Program-made: the position numbers and the translations under genes
Shown here: positions 1 through 56,891 of the stretch, piece by piece
Layout of the letters: the number at the start of each line of letters is the position of its first letter
Position numbering within the stretch: the stretch's first letter is position 1
IMG/VR virus record: IMGVR_UViG_2627853701_000009
Source: a virus
Lineage: Duplodnaviria; Heunggongvirae; Uroviricota; Caudoviricetes
Length of the DNA stretch: 64,000 bases
Direction: 5' to 3' (one strand)
The notes under the pieces: model-generated
Seen by the model: only the letters and a program-made list of their open reading frames with translations
Databases searched by the model: none
What the model was told of the DNA's origin: nothing

Positions 1-663
1 GCCTTGCCAGATGTTGTCTCAGATTCAGATTATGTCGCTCAATGCGCTGAGTGTAACGCTTGCTGATAACGTGCAGCTTTCCCTTCAGGCGTGATTCATA
101 CAGCGGCCAGCCATCCGTCATCCATACCACGACCTCAAAGGCCGACAGCAGGCTCAGAAGACGCTCCAGTGTGGCCAGAGTGCGTTCACCGAGGACGTGC
201 GCCACAACCGTCCTCCGTATCCTGTCATACGCGTAAAACAGCCAGCGCTGACGTGATTTAGCACCGACGTAGCCCCACTGTTCGTCCATTTCAGCGCAGA
301 CAATCACATCACTGCCCGGTTGTATGCGCGAGGTTACCGACTGCGGCCTGAGTTTTTTAAGTGACGTAAAACCGTGTTGAGGCCAACGCCCATAATGCGT
401 GCACTGGCGCGACATCCGACGCCATTCATGGCCATATCAATGATTTTCTGGTGCTTACCGGGCTGAGAGGCGGTGTAAGTGAACTGTAGTTGCCATGTTT
501 TACGGCAAGGAGAGCAGAGATAGCGCTGATGTCCGGCAGTGCTTTTGCCGTTACGCACCACGCCTTCAGTAGCGGAGCAGGAAGGACATCTGATGGAAAT
601 GGAAGCCACGCAAGCACCTTAAAATCACCATCATACACTAAATCAGTAAGTTGGCAGCATTAC
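1..663 (-). mobile_element. IS1 insertion sequence, partial (right end cut by window start); left terminus at about 663
   Basis: 91-aa ORF matches IS1 InsA; rc of 1-130 matches IS1 insB 3' region; rc of 641-663 is the IS1 terminal inverted repeat (GGTAATGCTGCCAACTTACTGAT). Confidence 0.85.
334..609 (-). CDS. insA: IS1 transposase subunit InsA
   Basis: [32 protein letters not shown]... near-identical to IS1 InsA from memory. Confidence 0.9.
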
Positions 664-833
664 CGAGATTGTTTTGTCGGAACTGATACGCTGGCGCTAA
701 TAGGTAGTAGGGTTCTTATGCAAAACATACAACCTCTTTCTTAATTTTCGAACCTGTTTAGGATTCTGTGTAAATTCAAAATAAACCTGTCTGAACATTC
801 CTAACAAACATCCACCGGACATGACAACAAAAA

Positions 834-855
834 CCGGAGCCGGACTCCGGTTTTT
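834..855. terminator. Bidirectional rho-independent terminator-like hairpin (CCGGAG-CCGGA-CTCCGG flanked by A and T runs) at tail-fibre end junction a
   Basis: Perfect 6-bp stem with A5 upstream and T5 downstream; same element at 16836-16856 and 20908-20928. Confidence 0.6.
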
Positions 856-868
856 GTGAAGCTGTCGG

Positions 869-1138
869 CTATTTCATTCCGCCAATATTTTCCCACGTCC
901 CGTCAGCACGCAGTATTTGCAGCGGTCTTACCACGCACTGTATCTGCTTTTTATCCGCATCCAGTATCACCACCTGCGTGATTACCCTGTCCTGCTCCGG
1001 GATAATACCATTCTCATCGGACTCCAGAATGTCTGCCGGTCCCAGTCGCAGCTGTGCTGTAAGTAACTCCCCGTTTTCACGGTCATCATGCTTTCCGCAA
1101 CCGCACAGACGCTGCATAAGTTTTTTTAGTATATTCAT
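869..1138 (-). CDS. Small protein (89 aa) directly downstream of tail fibre gene; function unknown
   Basis: ATG at 1138 two bases after fibre stop; conserved in copy B (20943-21212); C-terminal remnant reused at 16871-16942. Confidence 0.5.
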   Translation of the reverse strand: MNILKKLMQRLCGCGKHDDRENGELLTAQLRLGPADILESDENGIIPEQDRVITQVVILDADKKQIQCVVRPLQILRADGTWENIGGMK

Positions 1139-1139
1139 G

Positions 1140-2459
1140 TCATTCTCCTGTTCTGCCTGTATCACTGCCCACTTCATCCAGCCCCTTAACATCCTGCCAC
1201 GGCCCGTCACCAAACCTGACCTGCAAATGCTGAAAAAAACCCTGAACCCGTGTGGCATCTTTGGGGTCAAGAAAGGTCAGTCCGGTGATGAGTGCGCCAT
1301 CTGTATCCGGGAACCAGCCATGGCTGTTTGTCTCAATAATGCTCGCCGGCCCCAGACGAAAACGGATTTGTGTCTCCCCCGGGTCGCCCTTCGGTCCCTG
1401 AGGTCCGGTTGCCCCCACCGGGCCAGCCGCACCTGTTTCTCCTTTCGGTCCCTGTGGGCCTGCCGGGCCTGCCGCACCGGTATCTCCCTTTGGACCCTGT
1501 GGACCTGCATTTCCCGTCAGACCGGTCTCTCCCCGCTCTCCCCTGTCACCTTTCGGCCCCTGCGGGCCTGCCGGACCAGCATCACCTGCCGGTCCCCGTT
1601 CACCGGTTGCCCCGACAGGGCCGGTGTCACCGCGCTCTCCCTTATCACCCTTCGGCCCCTGAGGACCCGCGGGCCCCTGTTCCCCCTTTGGCCCGGGAGG
1701 TCCCACCACGGTGGGGATTCGGTTTACGGCCTCTTCCGCCGCTATCCTGCTTTGTTCCGCTGACTGTGCGCTTTCTGCTGACTCCCGGGCTTTTTCTGTT
1801 GCGGTCGTTGCATCCCTGGCTGCATTACCGGCTGCACTTTCTGCCGTCTTTCTTGACAATTCAGCTTCTGCTGCACTTTGTGATGACTCACTGGCTTTTT
1901 GAGCGGCCGCAGAAGCCGAGGACGAGGACGCATCCTCTGACTGCTTTGCAGCGGCTGCACTTTCTGCCGCCTGCCGGGCTGACTCCGATGCATCCCCTGC
2001 TGAAGTGTCAGCATTTGCAGCGCTCTCTTCTGCCTGACTGGCTGATATGCCGGCATTCCTCGCTGACGTCTCCGCCTCTCCGGCATTCTTCTTCGCCTCC
2101 TCAGCGTGACGCGCCACCTCTTCCACCATCAGTTCAAAACGACGCAGTGCCTCCGGCCGGACGTCATCCTCCGACATGGCACCGAGAAAATCATTCAGCG
2201 TCCCCGGTTGAGAATCTTCATACACGGTGATGGTCCCGGCATGTGACGGCGGGAATCCCTCCACCAACAGAATGACGCTGTACTGACCGTACTCAACGTC
2301 CATGCTGTAACGACCGGCTTCATCCGGATTTTCAGAGGCCACCGTGTTCACCACCACCGTGCTGCTGGTCCGTCTGGCTTTCAGTTGAATGGTGCAGTTC
2401 TCTACCGGTTTTCCTGTGCCGTCTTTCAGTACACCTGAAATCTTTACTGCCATATTCAC
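1140..2459 (-). CDS. Side tail fibre protein with collagen-like Gly-X-Y repeats
   Basis: Long run of GPxGxxG triplets ([28 protein letters not shown]...), Ala/Ser/Glu-rich coiled N-region; position after lom. Confidence 0.8.
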   Translation of the reverse strand: MNMAVKISGVLKDGTGKPVENCTIQLKARRTSSTVVVNTVASENPDEAGRYSMDVEYGQYSVILLVEGFPPSHAGTITVYEDSQPGTLNDFLGAMSEDDVRPEALRRFELMVEEVARHAEEAKKNAGEAETSARNAGISASQAEESAANADTSAGDASESARQAAESAAAAKQSEDASSSSASAAAQKASESSQSAAEAELSRKTAESAAGNAARDATTATEKARESAESAQSAEQSRIAAEEAVNRIPTVVGPPGPKGEQGPAGPQGPKGDKGERGDTGPVGATGERGPAGDAGPAGPQGPKGDRGERGETGLTGNAGPQGPKGDTGAAGPAGPQGPKGETGAAGPVGATGPQGPKGDPGETQIRFRLGPASIIETNSHGWFPDTDGALITGLTFLDPKDATRVQGFFQHLQVRFGDGPWQDVKGLDEVGSDTGRTGE

Positions 2460-2464
2460 CCCAC

Positions 2465-2490
2465 AAAAAAGCCCGCCTGAACCGGCGGGC
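2465..2490 (-). terminator. Rho-independent terminator downstream of lom
   Basis: Minus-strand hairpin GCCCGCC-GGTTCA-GGCGGGC followed by T6. Confidence 0.6.
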
Positions 2491-2517
2491 TGTCATAACA
2501 CTGTGTTACCTGGCTAA

Positions 2518-3117
2518 TCAGAACTTATAACCGACACCCACGATGAAACCGTCAGTGCGCCAGTCGCCACTGCCGGAGCCTTCATAAGCAATATCAATGG
2601 CCACGGATTCGGTCGGGTTAAACTGCACGCCAGCTCCCCACGCCAGAGACGTGTTGCTGTGGCGACCGTCATCACTTCCGGTCAGCACATCATGCGTTTT
2701 CCCCTTGTTGTCGGTCACCTGCAGATAATCACCGGAGAAAGTCGACACACGGCTGTAAGCCACACCCGCCATCGCATACGCGCTGAACCATTCATTCACG
2801 CGCACAGACGGCCCCGCCATATCGCTGAACCAGCGGTTACGCACGGAATCTTCATGCCAGCGGGTATCGCTGTAACGGGTCAGCTGGCGATTCTTGTCTC
2901 CTGCATAGCTGAATGACGTCACCATTCCCAGTGTGTCCGTAAACTCATAACGGTATTTCACGTTAATCCCGTTCAGTTCATCGCTGCCAGGAACGTTCGT
3001 CGAGACATGAAGATACCCCGCGCTCAGCGTTGACTGATGTTCAGACGCCCATGCAGGCGCACCGGATACGGCCAGACAAATGGCTGCGGACAAAATGGCG
3101 GCATAAAGTTTACGCAT
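2518..3117 (-). CDS. lom: Lom outer membrane protein (Ail/Lom family)
   Basis: 199 aa, signal peptide, near-identical to lambda Lom from memory. Confidence 0.9.
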   Translation of the reverse strand: MRKLYAAILSAAICLAVSGAPAWASEHQSTLSAGYLHVSTNVPGSDELNGINVKYRYEFTDTLGMVTSFSYAGDKNRQLTRYSDTRWHEDSVRNRWFSDMAGPSVRVNEWFSAYAMAGVAYSRVSTFSGDYLQVTDNKGKTHDVLTGSDDGRHSNTSLAWGAGVQFNPTESVAIDIAYEGSGSGDWRTDGFIVGVGYKF

Positions 3118-3141
3118 AATTACCTCTCGCTTTTCTGCAAT

Positions 3142-3165
3142 AAAAAAGGCGCCATTTCTGGCGCC
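3142..3165 (-). terminator. Rho-independent terminator between J and lom
   Basis: Minus-strand hairpin GGCGCC-AGAAAT-GGCGCC followed by T6. Confidence 0.6.
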
Positions 3166-3184
3166 CGTATATGGGTTATAAAAT

Positions 3185-6100
3185 TCAGCTGATACTGATG
3201 CCTGCGGTGGCTTTCTTCATCACCACAACCAGCAAATCGCTGATACTTGCTGTGGGATACCAGTTATTCACCAGCCATGCTGACACCGAAAACTCCAGCG
3301 TCATGTGACCGTGACCGGCAGGCATATCAATAACGCCACTGTAAATCAGCGTATTATCCAGCGCGGTACGGTTATAAATTTCAGCACCGTTTTTCCGCAC
3401 TATCAGACGGCATGAGGAGTAAATATCAGTATGCTCTCTCTCATGCTTAGCGCCGCTGAATGCCACCGCCGGAATAACAATCTGCCGGTCAAACGGCTGA
3501 TCGTCATAAACCCTGACGGTAATGGTCCCTGATGGCCACCGCTCCGGTGCCCGGGAGTCCCGCGGAAAAGCCTTACCCACTGTTTTGACTATATCGCCTT
3601 CAATCTGGTTGGCTGACAGTTTCCCCTTAATCTGACAGTTCTCATTAATCGTGACGTTGTTGAGCGTCCCCGCGTTCGCATTCACACTGCCACTGATATC
3701 CGCATTTTTAGCTGTCAGCTTTCCGTCCGGTGTCAGGGAAAATGCCGGCGGATTGCCGCCGGAGGTAATGGTGGGAGCCGTCAGGCGTTTCAGGAACACG
3801 TCGTTCATGAATATCTGATCGCCCTGACCAACAAACATCGGCTTTGTGTTGCCATTCGCAGGATTAATCATCGCAATCCTGTCTGCCGCCAGCAGCACCT
3901 GACTCTGCATTCCTGCTGGCGTATTCTCAATACCGGCACCGATACCCGCAATATAAAGGCGTCCGTCCTTCATCTGTTGCAGCTTCACAGCCCACATGCT
4001 GTTCAGATTATTATTTGTATCAACCTGAACCTTCTGTATCTGCTGGATCGCTGCACTCTGGTCTTCCAGTTTCTTATTGACGGTCTGCGTGATTTCATTA
4101 CTGACATCCGTGATGGACGTTCTGATTTCCGCCAGGTCAGGCGCAAGCTGACCGTTATCAATCTGAGTCCACAACTCCTGAGCCAGATGGGTTTTCCCTA
4201 TCTCTCCTTTGAAAAAATCCAGATAGCCGGATGCATCATCACTCGGCTGGCCAACAGCCTCCACAAATGCCGATTTGCCAACGGTGTTCACACTGCGGAT
4301 ATAAAAGTAATAATCATGGCCCGGTTTGATATTGATACTGGCGGCTATCCAGTACAGCCCCGTGCCAAGGTAGCGGGCTGTGGTTTCAACCTGCCTGATA
4401 TCGGTAATCCGCGTTTCCGAAAACCAGAACTCAAACTGTACCGTCGGGTCATACACCGCAAGACGCGGGACCGCTGTTATCTGAAAATAGCCCGGTGTCA
4501 GCTCAATCTGTGACGGCGCTGCCGGTGCGGCAATCCGGAACGATACCGACGCCGGATCGCCCTGCTGCCCCCACGCATTTACCGCCCGGACTGTCAGCCT
4601 GTAGTTCCCCGGCGCCAGTTGCGTGAAGCGGTATGTGGTTTCCGTCGTCCGGGCCGTGCTGACCAGCCGCTCACTGCCGTCATCCGCGGCCACGGTCAGG
4701 CGAAGCATAAAGCTCACGCCCTTCACCACCTTCGGCGTGTCCCATTTCGCCTGCGCCAGATACTGACCGTCAGCTGCGCTCACCTCCACCGTCAGGTGCT
4801 GCACTGCCGGAGGGATGACGCTGTTCAGGGTGCCTGACTGCGGCTCAAAGCTGGCCCCGTTATCCACGATGGCTTCCTTTTCCGGTACGTGCTGCACCGC
4901 CGTGATGGCAAAGGTGCCGTCCGTGTTTTCCCGGATGGAGACACAGCGGAACAGGCGACGACGCAGTGACGGCAGGGAGAGTCCCCATACACCGTATGTC
5001 TCCACACCATCAGGCAGGGTGCTGACCTGTATCCGGTCCGGCGCGGGGTGTGCAGTGATGGCCACGCTCACCGGCTTACCGCTGCCGTTAATCAGGTTCA
5101 CCGTGGCGGCACCGGTCTCCGGCAGGGTCACCTCACGGTCCAGTGTCAGGGTGCGGCTGGCGGCATCGATGGACAGGATACGTCCGCCGGTCATGGTCCC
5201 GGCATAGTCGTTATCACAGATTTCAATAATGTCACCGGGTGTGTGACGCAGCCCCTGTGACCCGAGCGTGAAATCCACCGTCTGCGTTTCCAGCAGTCCG
5301 GTCTTTATCACCCACAGCCCGGCACGGTGGGCCTGACCGCGACTGGTACAGCCGAACGCATCCATCTTCAGCAGGTTGCGCCCGTAGCGCAGTATGGCTT
5401 CCGGGTCTTCCACCAGTTCCGTGGAGGTCTGCCAGCCGTTCTGCGGGTCGGTGTAATTCACCTCCACCGCCGTGTGGCGGTCCTTCAGGGCGCTGAAGCT
5501 GTAGCGAAACCCCACGCCGTTATCATCCACCACCACATCACTGTTGGTGTACGGCCACACCACATCCGACGGGCTGTCCTGAACGAACGTCAGCGTCTGG
5601 CCGTTCCATACCGGCATACAGCGCATCGCCGAGCAGAAATCACTGAGAACGTCCCACGCCTTACGCTGTTGTGACAGGTACGCATTGAAAGTCATCCGCG
5701 GCTCTGTGCCCCCGAAACCATCCGGGACCGTCTGGTCGCAGTACTGTCCGATGGCATACAGCGCCCACTTGTCAACATCCGCCGCCACCAGACGTTTTCC
5801 CATGCCGTAGCGCGGGTGAGTCAGCATGTCCCACAGGCACCAGGCCGGGTTGTTGCTGTATGCCGGTTTCAGGCTGCCGTCCCAGATGCCGCTGTACGTG
5901 CGTTTTTCCGGGTCATAGTTTGACGGTACCTGGATGATGCGACCGCGGATATGGTAGTTCACCGTCATCTGCTGACCGCCAAACTGCTCCGCATCCACCT
6001 GCAGCCCCACAATCGCCGTGTTCGGGTAGCACTGTTTCACATCGATGATTTCGGTGTATGACGACCAGAGCGTCTTATTCTGCAGCTGGTCCGAGGTGCT

Positions 6101-6661
6101 GTCCGCTGTCTCCCGGACCATCCGGATGTTAAAGGGCCGCTCAGGCAGATTATCCAGAATCACCGACGCCAGAAACTGCGAGGTGGTCTTGCCGTTAATG
6201 GTGACATCCTTTTCCGTCACCCAGTTACCGTTACGCTGCAACTGAATCAGCAGTCGGACAGAAGAGGGATTACGGTCGCCCTTTGAGGTGGTCTCCAACA
6301 GTGACTGCACCCCGAAGGTGACCCGCAGGCGGTCAATGTTCGCGGACGTAATGGTGCGCGTCACCGGCTTTGCTTTCGTCACTTCCACGCCCAGTGCGGT
6401 TTCCGCCCCGGAGGACTCAAAGCCTTCAGGTGGTGTCTGCTCCTGCTCCCCGGCGCGCCAGACCGCTGTCACACCATGTATCACAGGATTACCGTCCGTG
6501 TCCGTCAGCGGGGTTTTGTTCACCAGGATACTCTGCAGCCCCTTCACCGGACCTTCAATCGGCCCTTCACCAATGGCGTCAATCACGCTCATCATCTGCG
6601 TGGACTTAAGATTGTCCTTTGCCTCTACCGGCGTGTGCCCCTTGCCGCCCCCTTTACCCAC
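3185..6661 (-). CDS. J: Tail tip host-specificity protein J (central tail fibre), 1158 aa from GTG
   Basis: Collinear with lambda J over full length; GTG start inferred because the upstream in-frame ATG extension is not conserved in copy B. Confidence 0.9.
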
Positions 6662-6735
6662 TCTGTCCCCCTCTCCTGTCTGATGTCTGAATCTGTTTAT
6701 GCCAGAAAACAACAGGCACCCCGGAGGTGCCTGTG

Positions 6736-6855
6736 TCATGACGGAATAAAATTTCTGAAACTCTTCACATTTCCGGCAATTGCCTGTAGCCGCAATAATG
6801 ACGCTGCATTACTTTTTTGATGCCTGAAAAATAACTCCATAACGTTAATCTTCAT
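6736..6855 (-). CDS. Candidate 39-codon ORF inside the inserted I-J intergenic region ([16 protein letters not shown]...)
   Basis: ATG with GGAG about 8 nt upstream; identical in copy B; flanked by two hairpins; no homolog recalled. Confidence 0.25.
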
Positions 6856-6900
6856 CGTTCTCTCCCGCAGCTCCGCTAACTCTGCGGGATTTTTTTATTT

Positions 6901-7578
6901 TCATCCCCGCCCGATAACCACCACTTTCCCGTCTCCGCCCTCATCACGGGTACTGATGTCCTGGGAGATTCGCCGGGAGCCAACCAGCATTTCACCGTAA
7001 GGCACCGGCATCGGGTTCCCCTGGGCAATCATGTTATCCAGCGAGGAAAAGTACGTGTTCTGTCTGCCGTTATCCGTTGCGCGGTAATCCGGTGTTTTTG
7101 CCTTCGGGGCCAGCATCTGGGCCACACCGCCCAGAATCATGCTGGCTCCAAGTGAAAACAGCATCGTGGTGGCAGAAAAACCACCGGCTGCCAGGGCTGA
7201 ACCCCATAACGCCATTGATGCCCCGGCAGTGAAGAAAGAGCCCACGATGGCTGCCGCCCCCAGCACAATCTGCAGTCCACCCTTTCCGGCCCCGGCCAGT
7301 CGCGGCACAATGTGGATGACCGTTCCCTCACCCAGCTGTTCGTGAAGACGGGCGTACACCGCCTCCGGTGCCGTGTCTTCACCGCGAATACGTATCTGGT
7401 ACCAGCCTTCGTTCATCTGACGGCGGAATCCCGGCATCTGCAGCGACAGGGCACGGATGGCTTCCGCTGCCGTGTTCACGTACAGGCTGAGGCGGCGGCC
7501 AAATCGTTGCAAATCCCCGTGAAGGCAGATGCGTGCCAGTGGCGGTGACGCCAGACAGAATGCGTTCGTCGTTGCCAT
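6901..7578 (-). CDS. I: Tail tip assembly protein I
   Basis: MATTNAFCLASPPLARICLHGDLQRFGRR... matches lambda I. Confidence 0.9.
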   Translation of the reverse strand: MATTNAFCLASPPLARICLHGDLQRFGRRLSLYVNTAAEAIRALSLQMPGFRRQMNEGWYQIRIRGEDTAPEAVYARLHEQLGEGTVIHIVPRLAGAGKGGLQIVLGAAAIVGSFFTAGASMALWGSALAAGGFSATTMLFSLGASMILGGVAQMLAPKAKTPDYRATDNGRQNTYFSSLDNMIAQGNPMPVPYGEMLVGSRRISQDISTRDEGGDGKVVVIGRG

Positions 7579-8219
7579 TTTTCCGAATACCTCTCCCGTT
7601 TACTCAGTTGTTCAGGCAGATGGTGAAGCAGTTCACCGTTGCCGCAGTATATGGCGGCATGATTGGCCACCGATGCGCCAAAGCAGCACAGCAGGATATC
7701 GCCCGCCTGTGCAGAGGACAGGGGCACCCGGTAAAAACCAGTCGCCGCCATATTGTCCAGGTAAAGGTTCTGACCGTTGCGCCACCAGTCATCCTCACGC
7801 ACAAAATCCGGCAGCGTTATCCCCGCCAGATGGTATGCATCCCGGAACAGGGTGTAACAGTCCGTCACCCCGTGCTCAAAACGACGCCCGGTCAGGTGCG
7901 GCACACAGCGGAATTTGTGAATTTCCCCCCGGCAGACCAGCCACCAGGGCAGGGCACTCTTTATCTGCAGCCGCCGGTCGGCCTCGCTCAGCCAGGGCAG
8001 ACCACCAGGGTGGCTGTGAACCAGCGCCACAATCTCCCCCTGCATCTCTGCCTGCAGCCAGTCTTCCGGCGCAATACGAAAATACGCCTCCGGCTCTGCG
8101 GAGATATTCACGCAGGGCTGGTACCGTTCGCCCTCCGGGGTGCCTATCACGAAGCCGCACGACTCCGCAGGCGCACACCGCCGGGCATGCACCAGAATCG
8201 CTGATTCAGTCTGTGTCAT
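7476..8219 (-). CDS. K: Tail tip assembly protein K (NlpC/P60 and JAB/MPN motifs), intact copy
   Basis: MTQTESAIL..., HSHPGG motif, DCYTLFRDAY Cys motif; position between L and I. Confidence 0.85.
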   Translation of the reverse strand: MTQTESAILVHARRCAPAESCGFVIGTPEGERYQPCVNISAEPEAYFRIAPEDWLQAEMQGEIVALVHSHPGGLPWLSEADRRLQIKSALPWWLVCRGEIHKFRCVPHLTGRRFEHGVTDCYTLFRDAYHLAGITLPDFVREDDWWRNGQNLYLDNMAATGFYRVPLSSAQAGDILLCCFGASVANHAAIYCGNGELLHHLPEQLSKRERYSEKWQRRTHSVWRHRHWHASAFTGICNDLAAASACT

Positions 8220-8229
8220 AAAACAGGAT

Positions 8230-8928
8230 TTACTGCGAAAGTTTATTGATGGAAAGGAAACCGCCAAAATTAGCCACCATGCCGCGCATCTCACACCCGC
8301 GCATGCACTTGCTGCATCTGTCCTTACGGATATCCGTGGTGGGGTTGTCGAACTCATCCGCCACCGCAGGACCGTTATACCCGCATTCATCTCCCCGGTA
8401 ATCCCACATACAGGTGTTCGCCAGCATGATGCGACCGGGAAACAGCGCACCGTCCGTCTCCGTCGGTGTTGCCAGCACAAACGAGGCTGTCATGGCCGTC
8501 AGCTCTGACATCTGCTCCACCACCCACCGGTCAGTCAGCTCCTGCTCCGGGTCGGCCTCCGGATTGCCTGCCACAAAGTTCACCGCATCCAGAAAACGGG
8601 CATACACCCGGCGGCGGACCACCGTGGCACCCACCAGGCTCTGCAAATCCTCCGCCATCCCGGTGACAAGACCGAACAGATTGGACACCGTCAGCGACGG
8701 GCGGGCACTGCTGCCCTTTCCGTTCATCTCAAAGCCACTGCCCTCAATCGGGTACGCCTGATATTGCCGCCCCTGCCAGGTCACCGGCTCCCCTTTTTCA
8801 TTCAGCTCATTGCAGAAAAAATACCGCTCACCGCCCTGCGCCGTCAGGTCGATTTCCCAGAGTACCACCCGCGGTGACTGCTCTGATTTAACCGACTCGT
8901 TCAGACTTTCTTCGTGAATATCCTGCAT
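8230..8928 (-). CDS. L: Tail tip protein L
   Basis: 232 aa, matches lambda L including C-terminal Cys cluster. Confidence 0.9.
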   Translation of the reverse strand: MQDIHEESLNESVKSEQSPRVVLWEIDLTAQGGERYFFCNELNEKGEPVTWQGRQYQAYPIEGSGFEMNGKGSSARPSLTVSNLFGLVTGMAEDLQSLVGATVVRRRVYARFLDAVNFVAGNPEADPEQELTDRWVVEQMSELTAMTASFVLATPTETDGALFPGRIMLANTCMWDYRGDECGYNGPAVADEFDNPTTDIRKDRCSKCMRGCEMRGMVANFGGFLSINKLSQ

Positions 8929-9257
8929 CAGTTCACCACCTGCTTAAACTCCGCGCTGAACTCAACGCGCAACATCCCGACCCGCGCAGACCACCCGGCA
9001 CAGGTCACCTTTATCTGCCGGTATGCATAGGGTGGCTTCCACAAAAATGCCTTCCAGCCTCCGTGCTCTGCCAGGAATGCCTCCAGATGTCGGGCCTCCT
9101 CCCGGGTCACGGAAAGCGTCACACGGTATGTTTTCAGGTCAGCATTCAGCCCTGCCGCCATACGCTGTGAGTACCCGTCACCAAAACGCACTTCACGCAC
9201 CGATGGCTGCGAGTTCACCTCCATATCCGGCTTCACTTTCCAGCGAAAGGTTTTCAT
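8928..9257 (-). CDS. M: Tail tip protein M
   Basis: 109 aa, matches lambda M. Confidence 0.9.
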   Translation of the reverse strand: MKTFRWKVKPDMEVNSQPSVREVRFGDGYSQRMAAGLNADLKTYRVTLSVTREEARHLEAFLAEHGGWKAFLWKPPYAYRQIKVTCAGWSARVGMLRVEFSAEFKQVVN

Positions 9258-48622: not shown

Positions 48623-48772
48623 GGATCATTAAGCCTGTCTCTGATAGGCTCATTCTGCTTTTGCGCAAAGCAGTGGGCCTGAGGTTTGCTTGTGAACCCA
48701 ACGCATGAGCAGATGGCTGGTGGGTGCCCCTTACACCCACCAGCCGCCCATTTACCACAAATAAAAAAGCCT

Positions 48773-51779: not shown

Positions 51780-51996
51780 CAGAATCCTTCCAGATAAATA
51801 GCACTCCCCTGTTCGGGGTCCATCCCTCTTCTCCCTGCGCGCTACTTAAGTATTTTTGATTCTATTCCGGCGCCGTCCGGAACTTCAAACGCGTTGAAAA
51901 TAAAAACAAAAACCCGCCGAAGCGGGTTAAGTGCGGGTGCGTTGAGGATGCCTGACACATCAGAGGTGGCGAGGGATTTCTCCCCCGCCTGGTCTC

Positions 51997-52152
51997 TTAC
52001 TCCTCAGGTTCGTAAGCTGTGAAGACAGCGACCTCCGTCTGGCCGGTTCGGATTCGTACCTCGCAGAGGTCTTTCCTCGTTACCAGTGCCGTCACTATGA
52101 CGATTAAACAGATGACGATCAGGGCGATTAACATCGCCTTTTGCTGCTTCAT
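51997..52152 (-). CDS. hok: Hok-family type I toxin (51 aa); overlapping mok-like upstream frame extends to 52209
   Basis: MKQQKAMLIALIVICLIVIVTALVTRKDLCEVRIRTGQTEVAVFTAYEPEE, near-identical to HokD/RelF from memory; terminator hairpin about 51900-51931. Confidence 0.85.
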   Translation of the reverse strand: MKQQKAMLIALIVICLIVIVTALVTRKDLCEVRIRTGQTEVAVFTAYEPEE

Positions 52153-52487
52153 AGCCTGCTTCTCCTTGACCTTTCGGTCCGTAAGAGGCAATCTATATGT
52201 GACGAGCATATAGGGGCCTCACTTCGATTTATAGTCGGGTGGGGCTTTTATCTATCTGCCGTTGGTGTTCATGCCCGAGGCAGATAGCCTCAAGCACCCG
52301 CAGCAATCCTACTTAACTCTGCCGTTACAGCAAACCGTTTTCGCCCGATATGGGAATTCCCATATCGGAATGAATTCAGTTCACCTGGCGAGGCTTAGCG
52401 TACAATTTTTTCCGTTTTGTGAGCTGCCCCTACATGCCGCTGGCGCGGCATCCGGAAAAAGAATCCACGTCCTGAAGGACGAGGATG

Positions 52488-53246
52488 TCAAGTGCCTTTC
52501 CTGGTCCAGCCATATTTTTTGAATGCAGGCGCCGCTTCATCGGTTTGTAGCCATTCTGCAAATCGACGGGTTTCATCATTTGCATCCTGACGTACTGTAA
52601 TGTTCATATCACGCCATATCACGTAGTCTGGCGCTATTTCCACGACATCACCAATTTCTGGATTACTGGCTGCCCAGTCAGCCCAGGTTATCCAGACATC
52701 TGCTCCAGGCTGATTCTCAAGAGCCTTACGTGCAGTTCCGCTATTGGGCGCATATAAAATAATATTTTTTCGGATTGCGGCGACAGTTTCTATATTCCCT
52801 TTACGTCCGGCAATATCTTCCCAGACGCCAGTGCCTGATGTATTACTGGTACCACCACCATCATTAACAATTACGCCAATCCCAGGTCTGGTCAGGTCGT
52901 CAATACTCCGGATATTTTTAGGATTACCTTTCTTTACCAGTAAAATACTTTTTCGCAGATAAAGAGGCTGAATATCTTTTTCACTGAAGCTGTCTTTATG
53001 GTCCCGAATGATAGCCAGAGCAGATTGTTCTGATGCGCCAAACAAGATATCTGCATTTTTTTTGGCATCTTCATTCCATTTGTTCTGTGGGCCGTAATGA
53101 ACGTTCACTATAATACCTGTTTTTTCGGCATAAAGTTTGGCTGCATCAAGCAAGGCTGTATGCGGGCCACCAGGACCATACAGATTGATATCAGCATAAG
53201 CAGCAGAAGACAGGAATATTAAAAAACCTGCCATTATGTTCCTCAT
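52488..53246 (-). CDS. Periplasmic solute-binding protein, ModA-like (molybdate/tungstate/sulfate family), orphan
   Basis: Signal peptide MRNIMAGFLIFLSSAAYA; ADILFGASEQ and C-terminal AAPAFKKYGW resemble ModA; no permease or ATPase genes nearby. Confidence 0.6.
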   Translation of the reverse strand: MRNIMAGFLIFLSSAAYADINLYGPGGPHTALLDAAKLYAEKTGIIVNVHYGPQNKWNEDAKKNADILFGASEQSALAIIRDHKDSFSEKDIQPLYLRKSILLVKKGNPKNIRSIDDLTRPGIGVIVNDGGGTSNTSGTGVWEDIAGRKGNIETVAAIRKNIILYAPNSGTARKALENQPGADVWITWADWAASNPEIGDVVEIAPDYVIWRDMNITVRQDANDETRRFAEWLQTDEAAPAFKKYGWTRKGT

Positions 53247-53410
53247 AAAAAACTCCTTTTATTGGTTATCATGAAATAAAGTTATAAACACTACAAATAA
53301 TATATATTACATCCAGATAAACTTATCCGACTTTACCTCGTGCATAGCTTGTTATTTAAAGTCAACAAAATAAGGAAAATTATACGCATATTGAAGAGTA
53401 TAAACCTTAC

Positions 53411-53438
53411 ATGTTGATTACATTTTTGTAATCAACAT
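53411..53438. promoter_or_regulatory. Perfect 28-bp palindrome (11-bp arms, 6-bp AT spacer) upstream of the binding-protein gene
   Basis: ATGTTGATTAC-ATTTTT-GTAATCAACAT. Confidence 0.4.
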
Positions 53439-54105
53439 CCTGTTTGGAATAGCCAGCCTTTAATGGATAACTATTTCTGACAATGCAATGAGTATAATCA
53501 AGTCCATCTTCCACTGAGAATTAGAGGCGGCATGCTTTTTCCGGCTCTTGCCGGATATCCGTAATTGTCCATAATCTGCAGATTTATACCTTCTGCATGA
53601 CCTGTCAGCGAAAATTTGTCCGGTGTTTCTACGGGAATGACATCAAAAGTTACACGCACTCGCGTTACCGTGTAGACCTACTTTCCTGCACTTGCAAGAT
53701 CACAGTGGTGTAACCGTAACAGGAATTTATTCTCTGGACCGGCAGTAAATCCCTGAGTGGCGTGGTTCCCATATCAATTTCCCGCCAGGCAGCCTCCATT
53801 GCCAGCGTACAGGCTGGAGCCATGACCTGCCCTTTAAATCTGGCCCGACCATCCCACCGGACGTGTTCTTCTCCCCTGAACTTAGGTACAGTCATCTCCA
53901 GTGGCACAAAAGTGTCAGCGCCATAATTTTTGACCGTTATCGCGCTACGGATATTTTGTTGACTGGTGAAAATCACCCCGCAGAATCAGGCTTATTCCCT
54001 TAACCTGGGCTTTCATCCTGACCGCCGCCTCACTACGACCAATCAGACTGCCGATGCATTTTACCTTCATTGTTAGTATCATGATTTCAGGCCTGCACCA
54101 TCCGC

Positions 54106-54840
54106 TCATTGCCCGGACTTCCGACAAATCCCGGCAACCATATCCCGGTGCTTGTTCAGCTCCCGCAGCGCGGCGCAGACTCGCTCCCACTTCTGGACAT
54201 GATTCTTCGCCCTACGCAGTTCGCGATTTGCCATATGCAGCGATGGCAAAATCAAATCATCTTCTCGCGTTGCAGTAAACGATGGCAGCGACTGCACAAT
54301 GTCCGCCACAGTTTCTGTTTTAATATCTTCCTGTGTTGCATCTTTCTGTACCGGTAACGCAACACCGGCTGGCTGAGGAAAGGCTTTACCATCGGTTTCC
54401 GCTACCGATTCAACTTTCGGCTCTGCTGGTAAATTATCACCTGGTATGCAGTAACGAATTTTACCGTTCTGGTTTACGCGAATCAGACGACCTTTGCTGA
54501 TTGCCATTGCCAGCGTTGAAGCAACTTTGCGGGATGTTGTACCGAACAGCGTAGCCAGTTCATCCGCCGTTTGTGGTCCGCGTTGTTCAATCGTCGCGGT
54601 TAAATCGCACTCTGAGATTTTCGCTTCTGTTGCCGTGGTGGTTTCTTCTGGCGCTGGCTGTTCCTGCTGAACGTTGTTATCAGCCACACGCCAGGTGTAT
54701 ACGCTTTTATCAACGAAGCCAGCCTTTTTCAGTTCCCACAGCTCGTTCAGTACTTCTTCACGACTGATATCAAGTCGCGCAGCCAGCTATACCGACGTGG
54801 CTTTTCCCATCGCTTTCAGTGCGTCAAAAACAGTCTCCAT
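54106..54840 (-). pseudogene. Winged-helix prophage protein interrupted by in-frame TAG at codon 18
   Basis: Frame open from ATG at 54840 ([44 protein letters not shown]...) continuing into the 193-aa ORF. Confidence 0.5.
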
Positions 54841-54873: not shown

Positions 54874-55539
54874 TCAAACAAAACCAGCCGCTTTCCGGCG
54901 TTCATATTCCTGTTTCAGCAACTCAATTGGCGTTGGCCCCGACGGGCGTTTGGGGGCCGCCAGTTGTCGCCGGACTGGCGGAACGCTCAGGCCGTTACTA
55001 ACATGCTTTGCCCATTTCGTCAGTTGCCGTTCTGCAAGCCGTTTTAATTCCCCTTCGGTCATCTGGCGCTCAATCCCCTTTGAACGCATCTCGAGGCAAA
55101 TGTGATACAGCACAGGCTGAGACCACGGGTACTTATCACTTCCGTCGTATCGCCAGGACTCATTGCGCCAGCGGCGGTACTCCTCCATCACAGCATCCAC
55201 CGTCAGACCGAATGGATTGGCTCCGCTTTTCGAAATCAGTGCCACAAACTCAGCCAGGTCCGGAGGCCATGTTTCACCCGCCCGGCAGCGGTCCATGCAC
55301 TGGCGGCAGACCTGCCGGATTTGCTGCTCAGTCATCGCGCCAATCTGTGCAATCCAGAGCTTCGAAGGTGCGGCCCCGTTCTTCTGGATCCAGCGGTTCG
55401 AATAAACCACCCCCATGAGTTCCCACAGCTTCCAGGCCGTTTCCGTCGCTGATAAATCCGTTTTCACGTTCCCACTGCTCACGTGCTGCCCGAATTTCCT
55501 GAACTGCCCGTGATGCGGTGCCACCTGGTGCTGCTGCAT
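54874..55539 (-). CDS. P: Replication protein P-like (helicase loader); true start probably internal (about 55335)
   Basis: C-terminal two-thirds align with lambda P (YPWSQPVLYH...ELKRLAERQLTKW); 5' part overlaps O-like ORF. Confidence 0.65.
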   Translation of the reverse strand: MQQHQVAPHHGQFRKFGQHVSSGNVKTDLSATETAWKLWELMGVVYSNRWIQKNGAAPSKLWIAQIGAMTEQQIRQVCRQCMDRCRAGETWPPDLAEFVALISKSGANPFGLTVDAVMEEYRRWRNESWRYDGSDKYPWSQPVLYHICLEMRSKGIERQMTEGELKRLAERQLTKWAKHVSNGLSVPPVRRQLAAPKRPSGPTPIELLKQEYERRKAAGFV

Positions 55540-56368
55540 GGTTTACCCCTTTGCTGACTGGTTTAACCTGCGCCCTGACGTGATTTACGTGACGGGCGAA
55601 TTTCTGCTCCCACTGAATCTGCGTAAACACTTTCCCCTCCGCTGCCCAGTAGTCCCGGAAGGCGGCAAGTTCAGCAGGTGTAAATTCTGTCTCCGGCAAA
55701 GCCATCCCCCACAACGCAGCCCGTCGTCGAAAATCCCGTGACGGATACCAGCTATCGCTCATCGGGAATTTTCCGATGGGTTCGCTCAGGCCATACAGGA
55801 ATACAGGGGGGGCTGCCTGTAACGACAAAACTTCCTGCTCACTGGTCGGAGCACTCTCGCGTGCGTTATGTGTGGGGTTTAGATCTTTGGGTTCCTTTGG
55901 GTTCCGTGATCCGTTTTTGGGTGTCTTTGATGGAAAATTTGGGTGTCTTTGGTTATTTTCCATGCAGCTAAGAGTTCTGTTTTTGGGTCTGTTTTGTGCT
56001 GAAACATAACCATTTTCGGTACTGTTTTTATTAACAGCACCAATTTTACCCACCTTTAAAGACTCCCGTTTTTGGGTGTATTCAGGCTCGGCAACACTTT
56101 CTTCTACACCGATAAGTCGGTACACCACAATTTGCTTTGTTCTGCCTTTTCTCTCACCGGTATCAACAATTAACCCAATCTCCATCAGGTGTCGTAAGCT
56201 GTCCTGCACAGTCTTTTTGTTCAGTTCCGTTACTTCTGCCAGTGCAGATACAGACGGGTATGCACACAAATCGGCACCGCACATATCAGCAAGCCAGGTC
56301 AATACTGACTTACTGGATGAACTGCCGGTTTTCACCTTTTTAGCCCATCGTAGTGCATCGATACTCAT
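55328..56368 (-). CDS. Replication initiator (HTH N-domain, DnaT-like C-domain; O-like function)
   Basis: MSIDALRWAKKVKTGSSSSKSVLTWLADMCG... and C-terminal FTPAELAAFRDYWAAEGKVFTQIQWEQKF. Confidence 0.65.
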   Translation of the reverse strand: MSIDALRWAKKVKTGSSSSKSVLTWLADMCGADLCAYPSVSALAEVTELNKKTVQDSLRHLMEIGLIVDTGERKGRTKQIVVYRLIGVEESVAEPEYTQKRESLKVGKIGAVNKNSTENGYVSAQNRPKNRTLSCMENNQRHPNFPSKTPKNGSRNPKEPKDLNPTHNARESAPTSEQEVLSLQAAPPVFLYGLSEPIGKFPMSDSWYPSRDFRRRAALWGMALPETEFTPAELAAFRDYWAAEGKVFTQIQWEQKFARHVNHVRAQVKPVSKGVNHAAAPGGTASRAVQEIRAAREQWERENGFISDGNGLEAVGTHGGGLFEPLDPEERGRTFEALDCTDWRDD

Positions 56369-56891
56369 ACGCCCCCCTGGCAGACATTTGTTTATCTGCA
56401 AAGTAATATTGGTATTGCTGACGATACGCGTGCTTGAAAGCAATAGCTTTTTCTATAAGCTCGTCAGTCTCACGTTCCACAACAACTGGATCCGCAAAAA
56501 GCAGCCCGGACTCCACCACATCGCCATATTCTTTGTTTAACCCGGCGATCATGTACGTAATGCTTTTTCCGTCAGTAATTTCACAATACAATCTGAAATC
56601 GCTGATCCGGATAGCCTCCATAATTGCCGGAATCAGCGCCGTGAATTTGTCACGCTTATCTCTGGTGTCGATAGCTTTCCAGCGTTCGAATATCTTCACC
56701 CGGTTAACGCCCAGCGCCCGTTGATCAACCTCGCCATCATTAAACGTGACGCGTTGAACATCGATGTTCGGGCGTTCTTTCAGAGCCCAGAATGCTTCCG
56801 TGATTAATATCGTCGCCTGCTCCTGTGTCATTCCTGGTCGGCATACCCAGGTATCCAGAGCCTCACAAACCTGTTCAGTGGTGATTTTCAT
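56340..56891 (-). CDS. Hypothetical protein between cro-like gene and replication genes
   Basis: 183-aa ORF in the cII position but too long for CII. Confidence 0.4.
   Translation of the reverse strand: MKITTEQVCEALDTWVCRPGMTQEQATILITEAFWALKERPNIDVQRVTFNDGEVDQRALGVNRVKIFERWKAIDTRDKRDKFTALIPAIMEAIRISDFRLYCEITDGKSITYMIAGLNKEYGDVVESGLLFADPVVVERETDELIEKAIAFKHAYRQQYQYYFADKQMSARGAYEYRCTTMG

Follow-up and report, generated by a model that had tools for sequence, protein, structure and literature searches.

The orphan AcfC-family gene paa/adfO of an EHEC prophage and a conserved inverted-repeat element in its upstream region

A gene for a secreted solute-binding protein that stands in a lambdoid prophage, with no transporter beside it and with an inverted repeat upstream, raises two questions: which protein is encoded, and what the repeat may be for. 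Both are considered here for a stretch of 64,000 nucleotides from a Caudoviricetes record (IMGVR_UViG_2627853701_000009), hereafter the window. The gene, at 52488-53246 on the minus strand, is already known as paa/adfO and is ordinary apart from the motif in its promoter region.

The gene, its prophage and its module

The open reading frame runs on the minus strand from an ATG at 53246 to a stop at 52488 and encodes 252 amino acids. A sequence-only reading had seen a secreted solute-binding protein here, and this is borne out: the frame is real, it opens with a Sec signal, and residues 20-247 of 252 match Pfam SBP_bac_11 (E 5.5e-34, 118 bits against a cut-off of 25). The signal peptide, as read from the sequence, comprises residues 1-18 (MRNIMAGFLIFLSSAAYA, then DINLY; 53193-53246, minus strand), a hydrophobic N-terminus that closes in AYA and is followed by D. 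The predicted cleavage position is the same as in PEB3 of Campylobacter jejuni; in a phmmer search of the PDB, the crystallised mature PEB3 chains 3fj7 and 2hxw start at the residue aligned to Paa D19. A Shine-Dalgarno sequence, AGGAG (53253-53257, minus strand), lies 6 nt before the ATG, and the region around it, ATAAAAGGA (53262-53254), is unchanged in nine of nine diverged paa copies.

The same search returns as closest solved structures PEB3 (E 1.2e-81, residues 11-248) and AcfC of Vibrio cholerae (E 3.5e-81, residues 16-248). That degree of identity to solved structures settles the fold. The sequence features of the AcfC/PEB3/Paa family are all found in the protein, namely full-length similarity, a length of about 250 aa, a Sec signal, SBP_bac_11 across the mature part and the cleft loops.

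The surrounding 2 kb (52200-54200) is present at a coverage of at least 80% in 572 of 5,426 complete genomes; it occurs in hundreds of EHEC genomes, and many from E. coli O157:H7, O26, O103 and O111 match it at 100% identity. In the identical DNA, RefSeq names the product "AcfC family adhesin Paa" (WP_001449026.1, gene paa). In the matching genomes paa has hokD, a fimbrial pseudogene and a DUF1627 gene as neighbours and lies within a lambdoid prophage integrated in ompW, and records of PPompW-family phages annotate the gene as Paa or adherence factor AdfO. It has been reported that adfO is z2053 of strain EDL933, in O-island 57, prophage CP-933O (PMC8565820, PMC9144400), and that in OI-57 it is always accompanied by ckf, z2054, a hok gene (PMC8565820). 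The stretch 14148-63996 of the window is 99.94% identical to O157:H7 TW14359. There is thus little doubt that the frame is paa/adfO, of the AcfC/PEB3 family, in the ompW-integrated prophage OI-57/Sp9/PPompW (CP-933O). Compared with Paa (porcine attaching-effacing associated protein)/AdfO of EHEC O157:H7 (z2053), it is the same gene with the same neighbours (hokD/ckf, fimbrial pseudogene, DUF1627), with no difference at the gene level. Since paa/adfO already serves as a routine OI-57 virulence marker in EHEC risk typing, finding it again adds nothing to the catalogue.

Two observations concern the prophage rather than the gene. Positions 1-14147 do not continue TW14359 and resemble the tail, J and Lom genes of a second lambdoid prophage at 90-98% identity; the aligning blocks within 802-13491 match TW14359 phage tail genes, also at 90-98%. 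The window therefore spans a junction or a strain-specific rearrangement of tandem prophage material. In strain PV15-279 (L001, 15467-16679), IS1203 is inserted in the O-like replication gene of the same prophage, at a point corresponding to window position ~55611; this gene is intact in the window and in TW14359 as a 371-aa frame at 55328-56443.

On its downstream side paa is followed by hokD (ckf, z2054) with its sok RNA (51997-52299, minus strand), identified by annotation and by Rfam RF01794 (103.9 bits, 52150-52299). This is a type I toxin-antitoxin module of the phage backbone. A true perfect palindrome of 24 bp, CCGATATGGGAATTCCCATATCGG, lies at 52345-52368, between the terminator region of paa and hok/sok; it starts right where similarity to 933W-type hok/sok ends (~52341), folds at -18.3 kcal/mol (z -3.6) and has no T-run. 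Just downstream of hokD, at 51907-51988 on the minus strand, the Hfq-binding prophage sRNA isrK gives an Rfam match that stays below the gathering threshold (24.9 bits, threshold 50, E 0.011).

Homology to the lambdoid phage backbone halts at ~52341 and resumes at ~53938. Plasmid-borne paralogues of paa, 86-89% identical in nucleotide sequence and often beside IS elements, are found on ETEC-type F plasmids and E. albertii plasmids, and they align only with the window from 52428 to ~53450. GC content is 0.29-0.38 across 53100-53500 against ~0.50-0.58 in the flanks. In these respects the locus has the marks of a phage moron: a non-phage gene between the hok/sok module and the replication-region genes, atypical composition, terminator hairpins and a putative promoter. 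The gene is a lysogenic-conversion gene of the lambdoid prophage in EHEC ompW. It occupies a self-contained segment of roughly 1 kb (~52428-53450), which brings along a promoter region and terminator hairpins.

Two hairpins follow the stop codon at 52434-52481 (minus strand), found by scan and folding: CGTCC-TTCA-GGACG with a T-run, then AUGCCGC-GCCA-GCGGCAU. Their region folds at -29.7 kcal/mol (z -3.2), contains a terminator-like site at 52481-52468 and is kept in the plasmid copies, and it is probably the terminator of the paa module. The downstream edge of the module varies, as the plasmid copies have about 100 nt more in common with one another than with the window. This boundary is not fixed, which argues against a site-specific cassette with fixed ends, and that candidate was rejected.

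Upstream, the sequence at 53500-54100 had been taken for gene debris, and rightly: RefSeq calls a frameshifted fimbrial pseudogene at 53407-53940, and DNA of ~86% identity to intact or near-intact genes of other E. coli is confined to window 53448-53912. Pfam finds nothing in the three frame fragments of the pseudogene, so the remnant is identified through DNA homology to the intact gene. The latter encodes 195 aa (Pfam Fimbrial PF00419, E 1.5e-6) and is the second gene of a Pap-like chaperone-usher operon, ordered as PapB-type regulator, major subunit, 195-aa fimbrial gene, usher and chaperone. The window copy, at 53449-53915 on the minus strand, is a remnant of the minor subunit in the PapH position, also weakly similar to papH DNA. 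Both of its ends are missing, with the last ~14 codons and the signal-peptide end gone in alignment to the intact homologue, and it carries internal deletions of 5 bp and 10 bp. The segment 53945-54109 is a small phage ORF.

Fimbrial loci are met beside other members of the family. In Aeromonas (L090, 6001-12762) an AcfC-family gene lies in an island with a fimbrial cluster (FaeA regulator, TcfC/CooC-type usher) and a DsbA gene, and in Vibrio acfC adjoins the tcp pilus genes. Together with the PapH-like remnant by paa and the E. coli loci L092 and L093, this suggests that AcfC-family genes are recurrently linked to pilus loci. In E. coli NCTC11129 (L092, 8088-10479), the phosphoglycerate-sensing regulators pgtA and pgtB adjoin the Pap-like operon with the intact fimbrial relative; this adjacency is noted on account of the presumed binding of 3-phosphoglycerate by PEB3 and is probably a coincidence.

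The conserved element upstream of paa

A perfect 28-bp palindrome had been described at 53411-53438. What stands there is a real inverted repeat, with perfect 12-nt arms ATGTTGATTACA and TGTAATCAACAT (53411-53422 and 53427-53438) around a TTTT spacer; it is not a perfect palindrome, because TTTT is not its own reverse complement. First-order Markov simulations give an expectation of 0.11 per 64 kb for perfect 12-nt inverted repeats whose loops are up to 10 nt long, and the repeat is more than chance would give. Two more perfect 12-nt inverted repeats with short loops are returned by the same scan, at 828-856 (beginning CAAAAACCGGAG) and 48715-48745 (beginning GGCTGGTGGGTG).

The repeat is part of the paa module, some 10 bp inside the upstream border, since the plasmid alignment reaches ~53450 and fimbrial homology begins at ~53449; the RefSeq pseudogene call merely runs through it. 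Nine upstream regions were aligned, the window and eight plasmid copies, which are 72-81% identical upstream of the gene and differ in what lies distally, with six or more unrelated contexts. Across the whole region CAAAAATGTAATCAA (53428-53414), the proximal half of the repeat, is the longest stretch without variation; it is followed by GTAAGGT (53410-53404) and then by TATAAT (53384-53379), both invariant in the nine copies. Conservation collapses distal to ~53440. The conserved part of the repeat is 53414-53431 (ATTACAAAAATGTAATCAA on the sense strand of paa). The distal arm (TGTTGAT) is kept just in the window and two or three plasmid copies and is lost in five of nine with no compensating changes; therefore hairpin formation is not what is conserved, and the palindromic symmetry itself may be incidental.

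The core, TTACAAAAATGTAAT, also occurs upstream of a Providencia homologue of 67% identity, about 115 nt from the gene, with the same AAAA spacer and orientation in a region that is otherwise unalignable. The core is found, too, in a Providencia-type IMG/VR contig, and an 86% variant (L141) keeps ACAAAAATGTAATCA-NNN-TGTAAGGTTT. In 1.02 Mb of retrieved loci, TTACA-N4-TGTAA occurs ten times: eight upstream of paa copies, one in Providencia and one at an unrelated place. The motif is absent upstream of the chromosomal homologues of E. albertii, Citrobacter and Edwardsiella, and the 22-nt core has no match at up to three mismatches upstream of the more distant homologues (L006-L085). No description of the motif, nor of the origin of the flanking pseudogene, was found in the literature searched, and the motif is apparently undescribed before.

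The invariant TATAAT (53379-53384, minus strand), 27 bp downstream of the conserved element, is a candidate -10 hexamer with no recognisable -35. On the minus strand, the interval from the repeat to the ATG contains no complete sigma-70 promoter by consensus scan. With TATAAT as the -10, the centre of the element would fall near -52, an arrangement that would suit an activator-dependent promoter. The element is probably a regulator-binding site, and most likely it binds a transcription factor controlling paa from ~27 bp upstream of TATAAT.

Several identities of the repeat were tried and rejected. Comparison with a ModE-type operator gives agreement at 8 of the 20 specified positions of the E. 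coli ModE consensus (PMC545781), which is background level; the best site in the whole upstream region reaches 12 of 20, a score attained 35 times in the window. An intrinsic terminator is not called by the scan, the stem being AT-rich with no T-run, and a constraint on hairpin structure is discarded given the uncompensated decay of the distal arm. The repeat is not the natural 3' end of the fimbrial gene either, as the intact homologue ends differently and homology begins only at ~53449. Sites for FNR, CRP, TyrR, Fur and EvgA and the ends of IS elements, compared by eye with their consensus sequences, appear to misfit in spacing or orientation.

The CpxR box has been described as a tandem GTAAA-N4-8-GTAAA (PMC3158067). 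A direct repeat, GTAA-N7-GTAA (53407-53421, minus strand), overlaps the proximal arm and is a weak candidate of the CpxR type by pattern match: GTAAT-N6-GTAAG agrees with the loose box at 8 of 10 positions, and GTAA-N7-GTAA is found twice in the window where 0.87 occurrences are expected, which by itself is not significant. Both GTAA are invariant in the nine copies, and the same spacing is found in Providencia and L141, the pattern being weak by itself. Upstream of other homologues the pattern is enriched (4 of 41), some of them from taxa that are not known to have CpxR.

It is tentatively proposed that 53404-53431 (ATTACAAAAATGTAATCAA-NNN-GTAAGGT) would be the operator of an enterobacterial regulator. 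The latter may be a CpxR-type response regulator of envelope stress or surface sensing, in view of GTAA-N7-GTAA, which would switch on an activator-dependent paa promoter (TATAAT, no -35), and the element would define the minimal unit required to accompany paa if it is to be of use on phages and plasmids in Escherichia and Providencia. Taken as a whole, the proposal may well prove wrong.

The repeat might instead have no regulatory role: it could be a scar or a hotspot of recombination at the junction where the mobile paa segment ends, or a stem-loop insulating paa from upstream phage transcription. It lies at most ~10 bp from where the similarity shared with all other contexts breaks off, it would fold on one strand at -14.3 kcal/mol (z -6.6), and the RefSeq pseudogene call spans it. 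However, an AT-rich stem with no T-run after it is not terminator-like, and the invariance of the proximal arm and spacer while the distal arm decays fits a sequence-specific site and not a hairpin. The core recurs, moreover, upstream of homologues of the Providencia type, in flanks that otherwise cannot be aligned, and the variable downstream end of the module bears no sign of a site-specific cassette. A role of this kind is conceivable and rather unlikely.

The orphan state and the function of Paa

No transporter partners had been noted for the gene in the window, and this is supported by the matching TW14359 annotation, which consists only of phage genes, T3SS effectors (nleA, nleH1-2, nleF) and IS elements, with no ABC genes. 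The homologues in three other genera, Campylobacter, Edwardsiella and Aeromonas, likewise have no permease or ATPase of their own adjoining. The Campylobacter gene lies between surE and the DUF817/cdt genes, that of Edwardsiella between traT and an Fe-ADH gene, and that of Aeromonas in an island adjoining a fimbrial usher cluster. The orphan state is a trait of the AcfC/PEB3/Paa family and not a peculiarity of this prophage.

PEB3 (PDB 2hxw, 3fir, 3fj7, 3fjg, 3fjm) is similar to Paa over nearly the full length (E ~1e-81), is of the same size, has identical SNTSGTGVWED and PNSG loops and is also an orphan with no ABC genes adjacent. It differs in that identity is ~53-55%, Lys135 of PEB3 corresponds to Thr133 of Paa, its N-glycosylation sequon DFNVS is not in Paa, and its gene is chromosomal whereas paa is phage-borne. 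AcfC (VC_0841, PDB 4jb7) shares the fold family, at ~47-55% identity with Paa (47% by the count of PMC5976639), and is a colonisation factor whose gene lies beside pilus genes on a mobile pathogenicity island. There it shares an operon with the chemoreceptor-like acfB and is controlled by ToxT, whereas paa is alone with its own promoter region.

In an alignment of 15 family members, from Escherichia to Helicobacter and Campylobacter, GPGGPH, S72/Q74/S75, S134-NTSGTG-140, W142-E-D, P167-N-S-G and W185/T187/W188/D190/W191 are invariant. These are the loops at helix N-termini which, in the ModA/Sbp fold class, bind oxyanions. The crystal complexes of PEB3 presumably hold citrate, 3-phosphoglycerate or PEP (PDB 2hxw, 3fj7, 3fjg, 3fjm). 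Lys135, the residue changed to Glu in PDB 3fir, corresponds to Thr133 in Paa and to Val in AcfC; therefore specificity may differ, and on sequence grounds Paa need not have the preference of PEB3 for phosphorylated C3 acids.

Paa is a Sec-exported protein of the solute-binding fold in Pfam SBP_bac_11, a family that also holds ModA- and sulfate-type binders. The proposed membership of the molybdate/tungstate/sulfate family therefore holds at the superfamily level, and the homology searches point to no unrelated family, as Pfam places the frame in SBP_bac_11 and the named family is AcfC. Membership in ModA or Sbp/CysP does not hold. The curated ModA, Sbp and CysP models give 12-23 bits against cut-offs of 62-470, over short stretches. 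TIGR01256 (modA) scores 18.3 bits against 62.5, below the family threshold and over residues 212-246 only, and NF007958 (PRK10677, ModA) 11.7 against 253, with the C-terminal 35 residues alone aligning. The sulfate/thiosulfate models TIGR00971 (21.5 against 155.5), NF008022 (22.6 against 288) and NF008106 (19.0 against 308 bits) align just ~45 residues around the SNTSG loop. ModA, Sbp and CysP thus have in common with Paa the Pfam family or clan and the two-lobe oxyanion-binding architecture, but Paa fails their curated cut-offs by a wide margin and has neither permease and ATPase partners nor a ModE operator.

Could Paa nevertheless be a true transport binder, delivering an oxyanion (sulfate, thiosulfate, molybdate or a phosphorylated C3 acid) to a remote chromosomal permease, with adherence secondary to nutrition? 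The SBP_bac_11 fold, the weak local similarity to Sbp and CysP near the SNTSGTG loop and the ligands assumed for the PEB3 crystals are in keeping with it, and E. coli Sbp, encoded apart from cysPUWA, is a precedent for a remote permease. Against it, none of the examined family members adjoins its own permease or ATPase, the ModA, Sbp and CysP scores are 3- to 15-fold under their cut-offs, paa travels alone on phages and plasmids amid virulence cargo, and no transport phenotype was found reported in the literature searched. Transport is, on balance, quite improbable. That Paa is a ModA-type molybdate/tungstate binder under ModE control, suggested by the Pfam family common to both and by short weak matches to modA models, is already refuted for family membership and operator match by the TIGR01256 score, by PEB3 and AcfC rather than ModA as closest structures and by the background-level ModE agreement of the repeat.

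With regard to function, an EHEC adfO mutant shows lower adherence to HeLa cells and fewer secreted proteins (PMC8565820), and in porcine EPEC a part in attaching-effacing adhesion has been ascribed to Paa, as cited in PMC5976639 and PMC8524897. AcfC resides in the periplasm, where it binds sulfated glycosaminoglycans and mucin; it influences chemotaxis, colonisation and intestinal distribution but did not mediate cell adhesion (PMC5976639). The paa gene of EDL933 is induced in bovine rumen and rectum contents (PMC8524897) and is not Fur-regulated (PMC4382993). Paa and PEB3 are called adhesins, and the mechanism of Paa, as adhesin or as periplasmic sensor/binder, is unsettled in the literature; AcfC looks like a periplasmic chemotaxis-linked binder rather than an adhesin.

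A mechanism can be outlined for Paa, in which adherence, periplasmic location and sulfate and mucin binding are drawn from the literature. The exported protein has a predicted mass of ~26 kDa and the two-lobed solute-binding fold common to AcfC and PEB3; its inter-domain cleft would be formed by the invariant loops GPGGPH, S-Q-S, SNTSGTG, PNSG and W-T-W-D-W, and the same cleft appears to hold small oxyanions in the solved relatives. Acting presumably without a dedicated ABC importer, Paa would bind an anionic host-derived ligand, probably sulfated or phosphorylated, in the periplasm or at the cell surface. Binding may then promote adherence and colonisation, directly through sulfated glycans and mucin or indirectly through effects on chemotaxis and secretion. 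These steps, from the ligand class to the promoter position and the regulator-binding role of the repeat, are much less certain than the identity of the gene.

For the family, what is added is that its members are consistently orphan, so that Paa is no stray ModA. The wreck of a Pap-like minor subunit upstream hints that paa was acquired from beside a chaperone-usher operon, and the conserved promoter motif could give a handle on the regulation of a poorly understood adherence factor.
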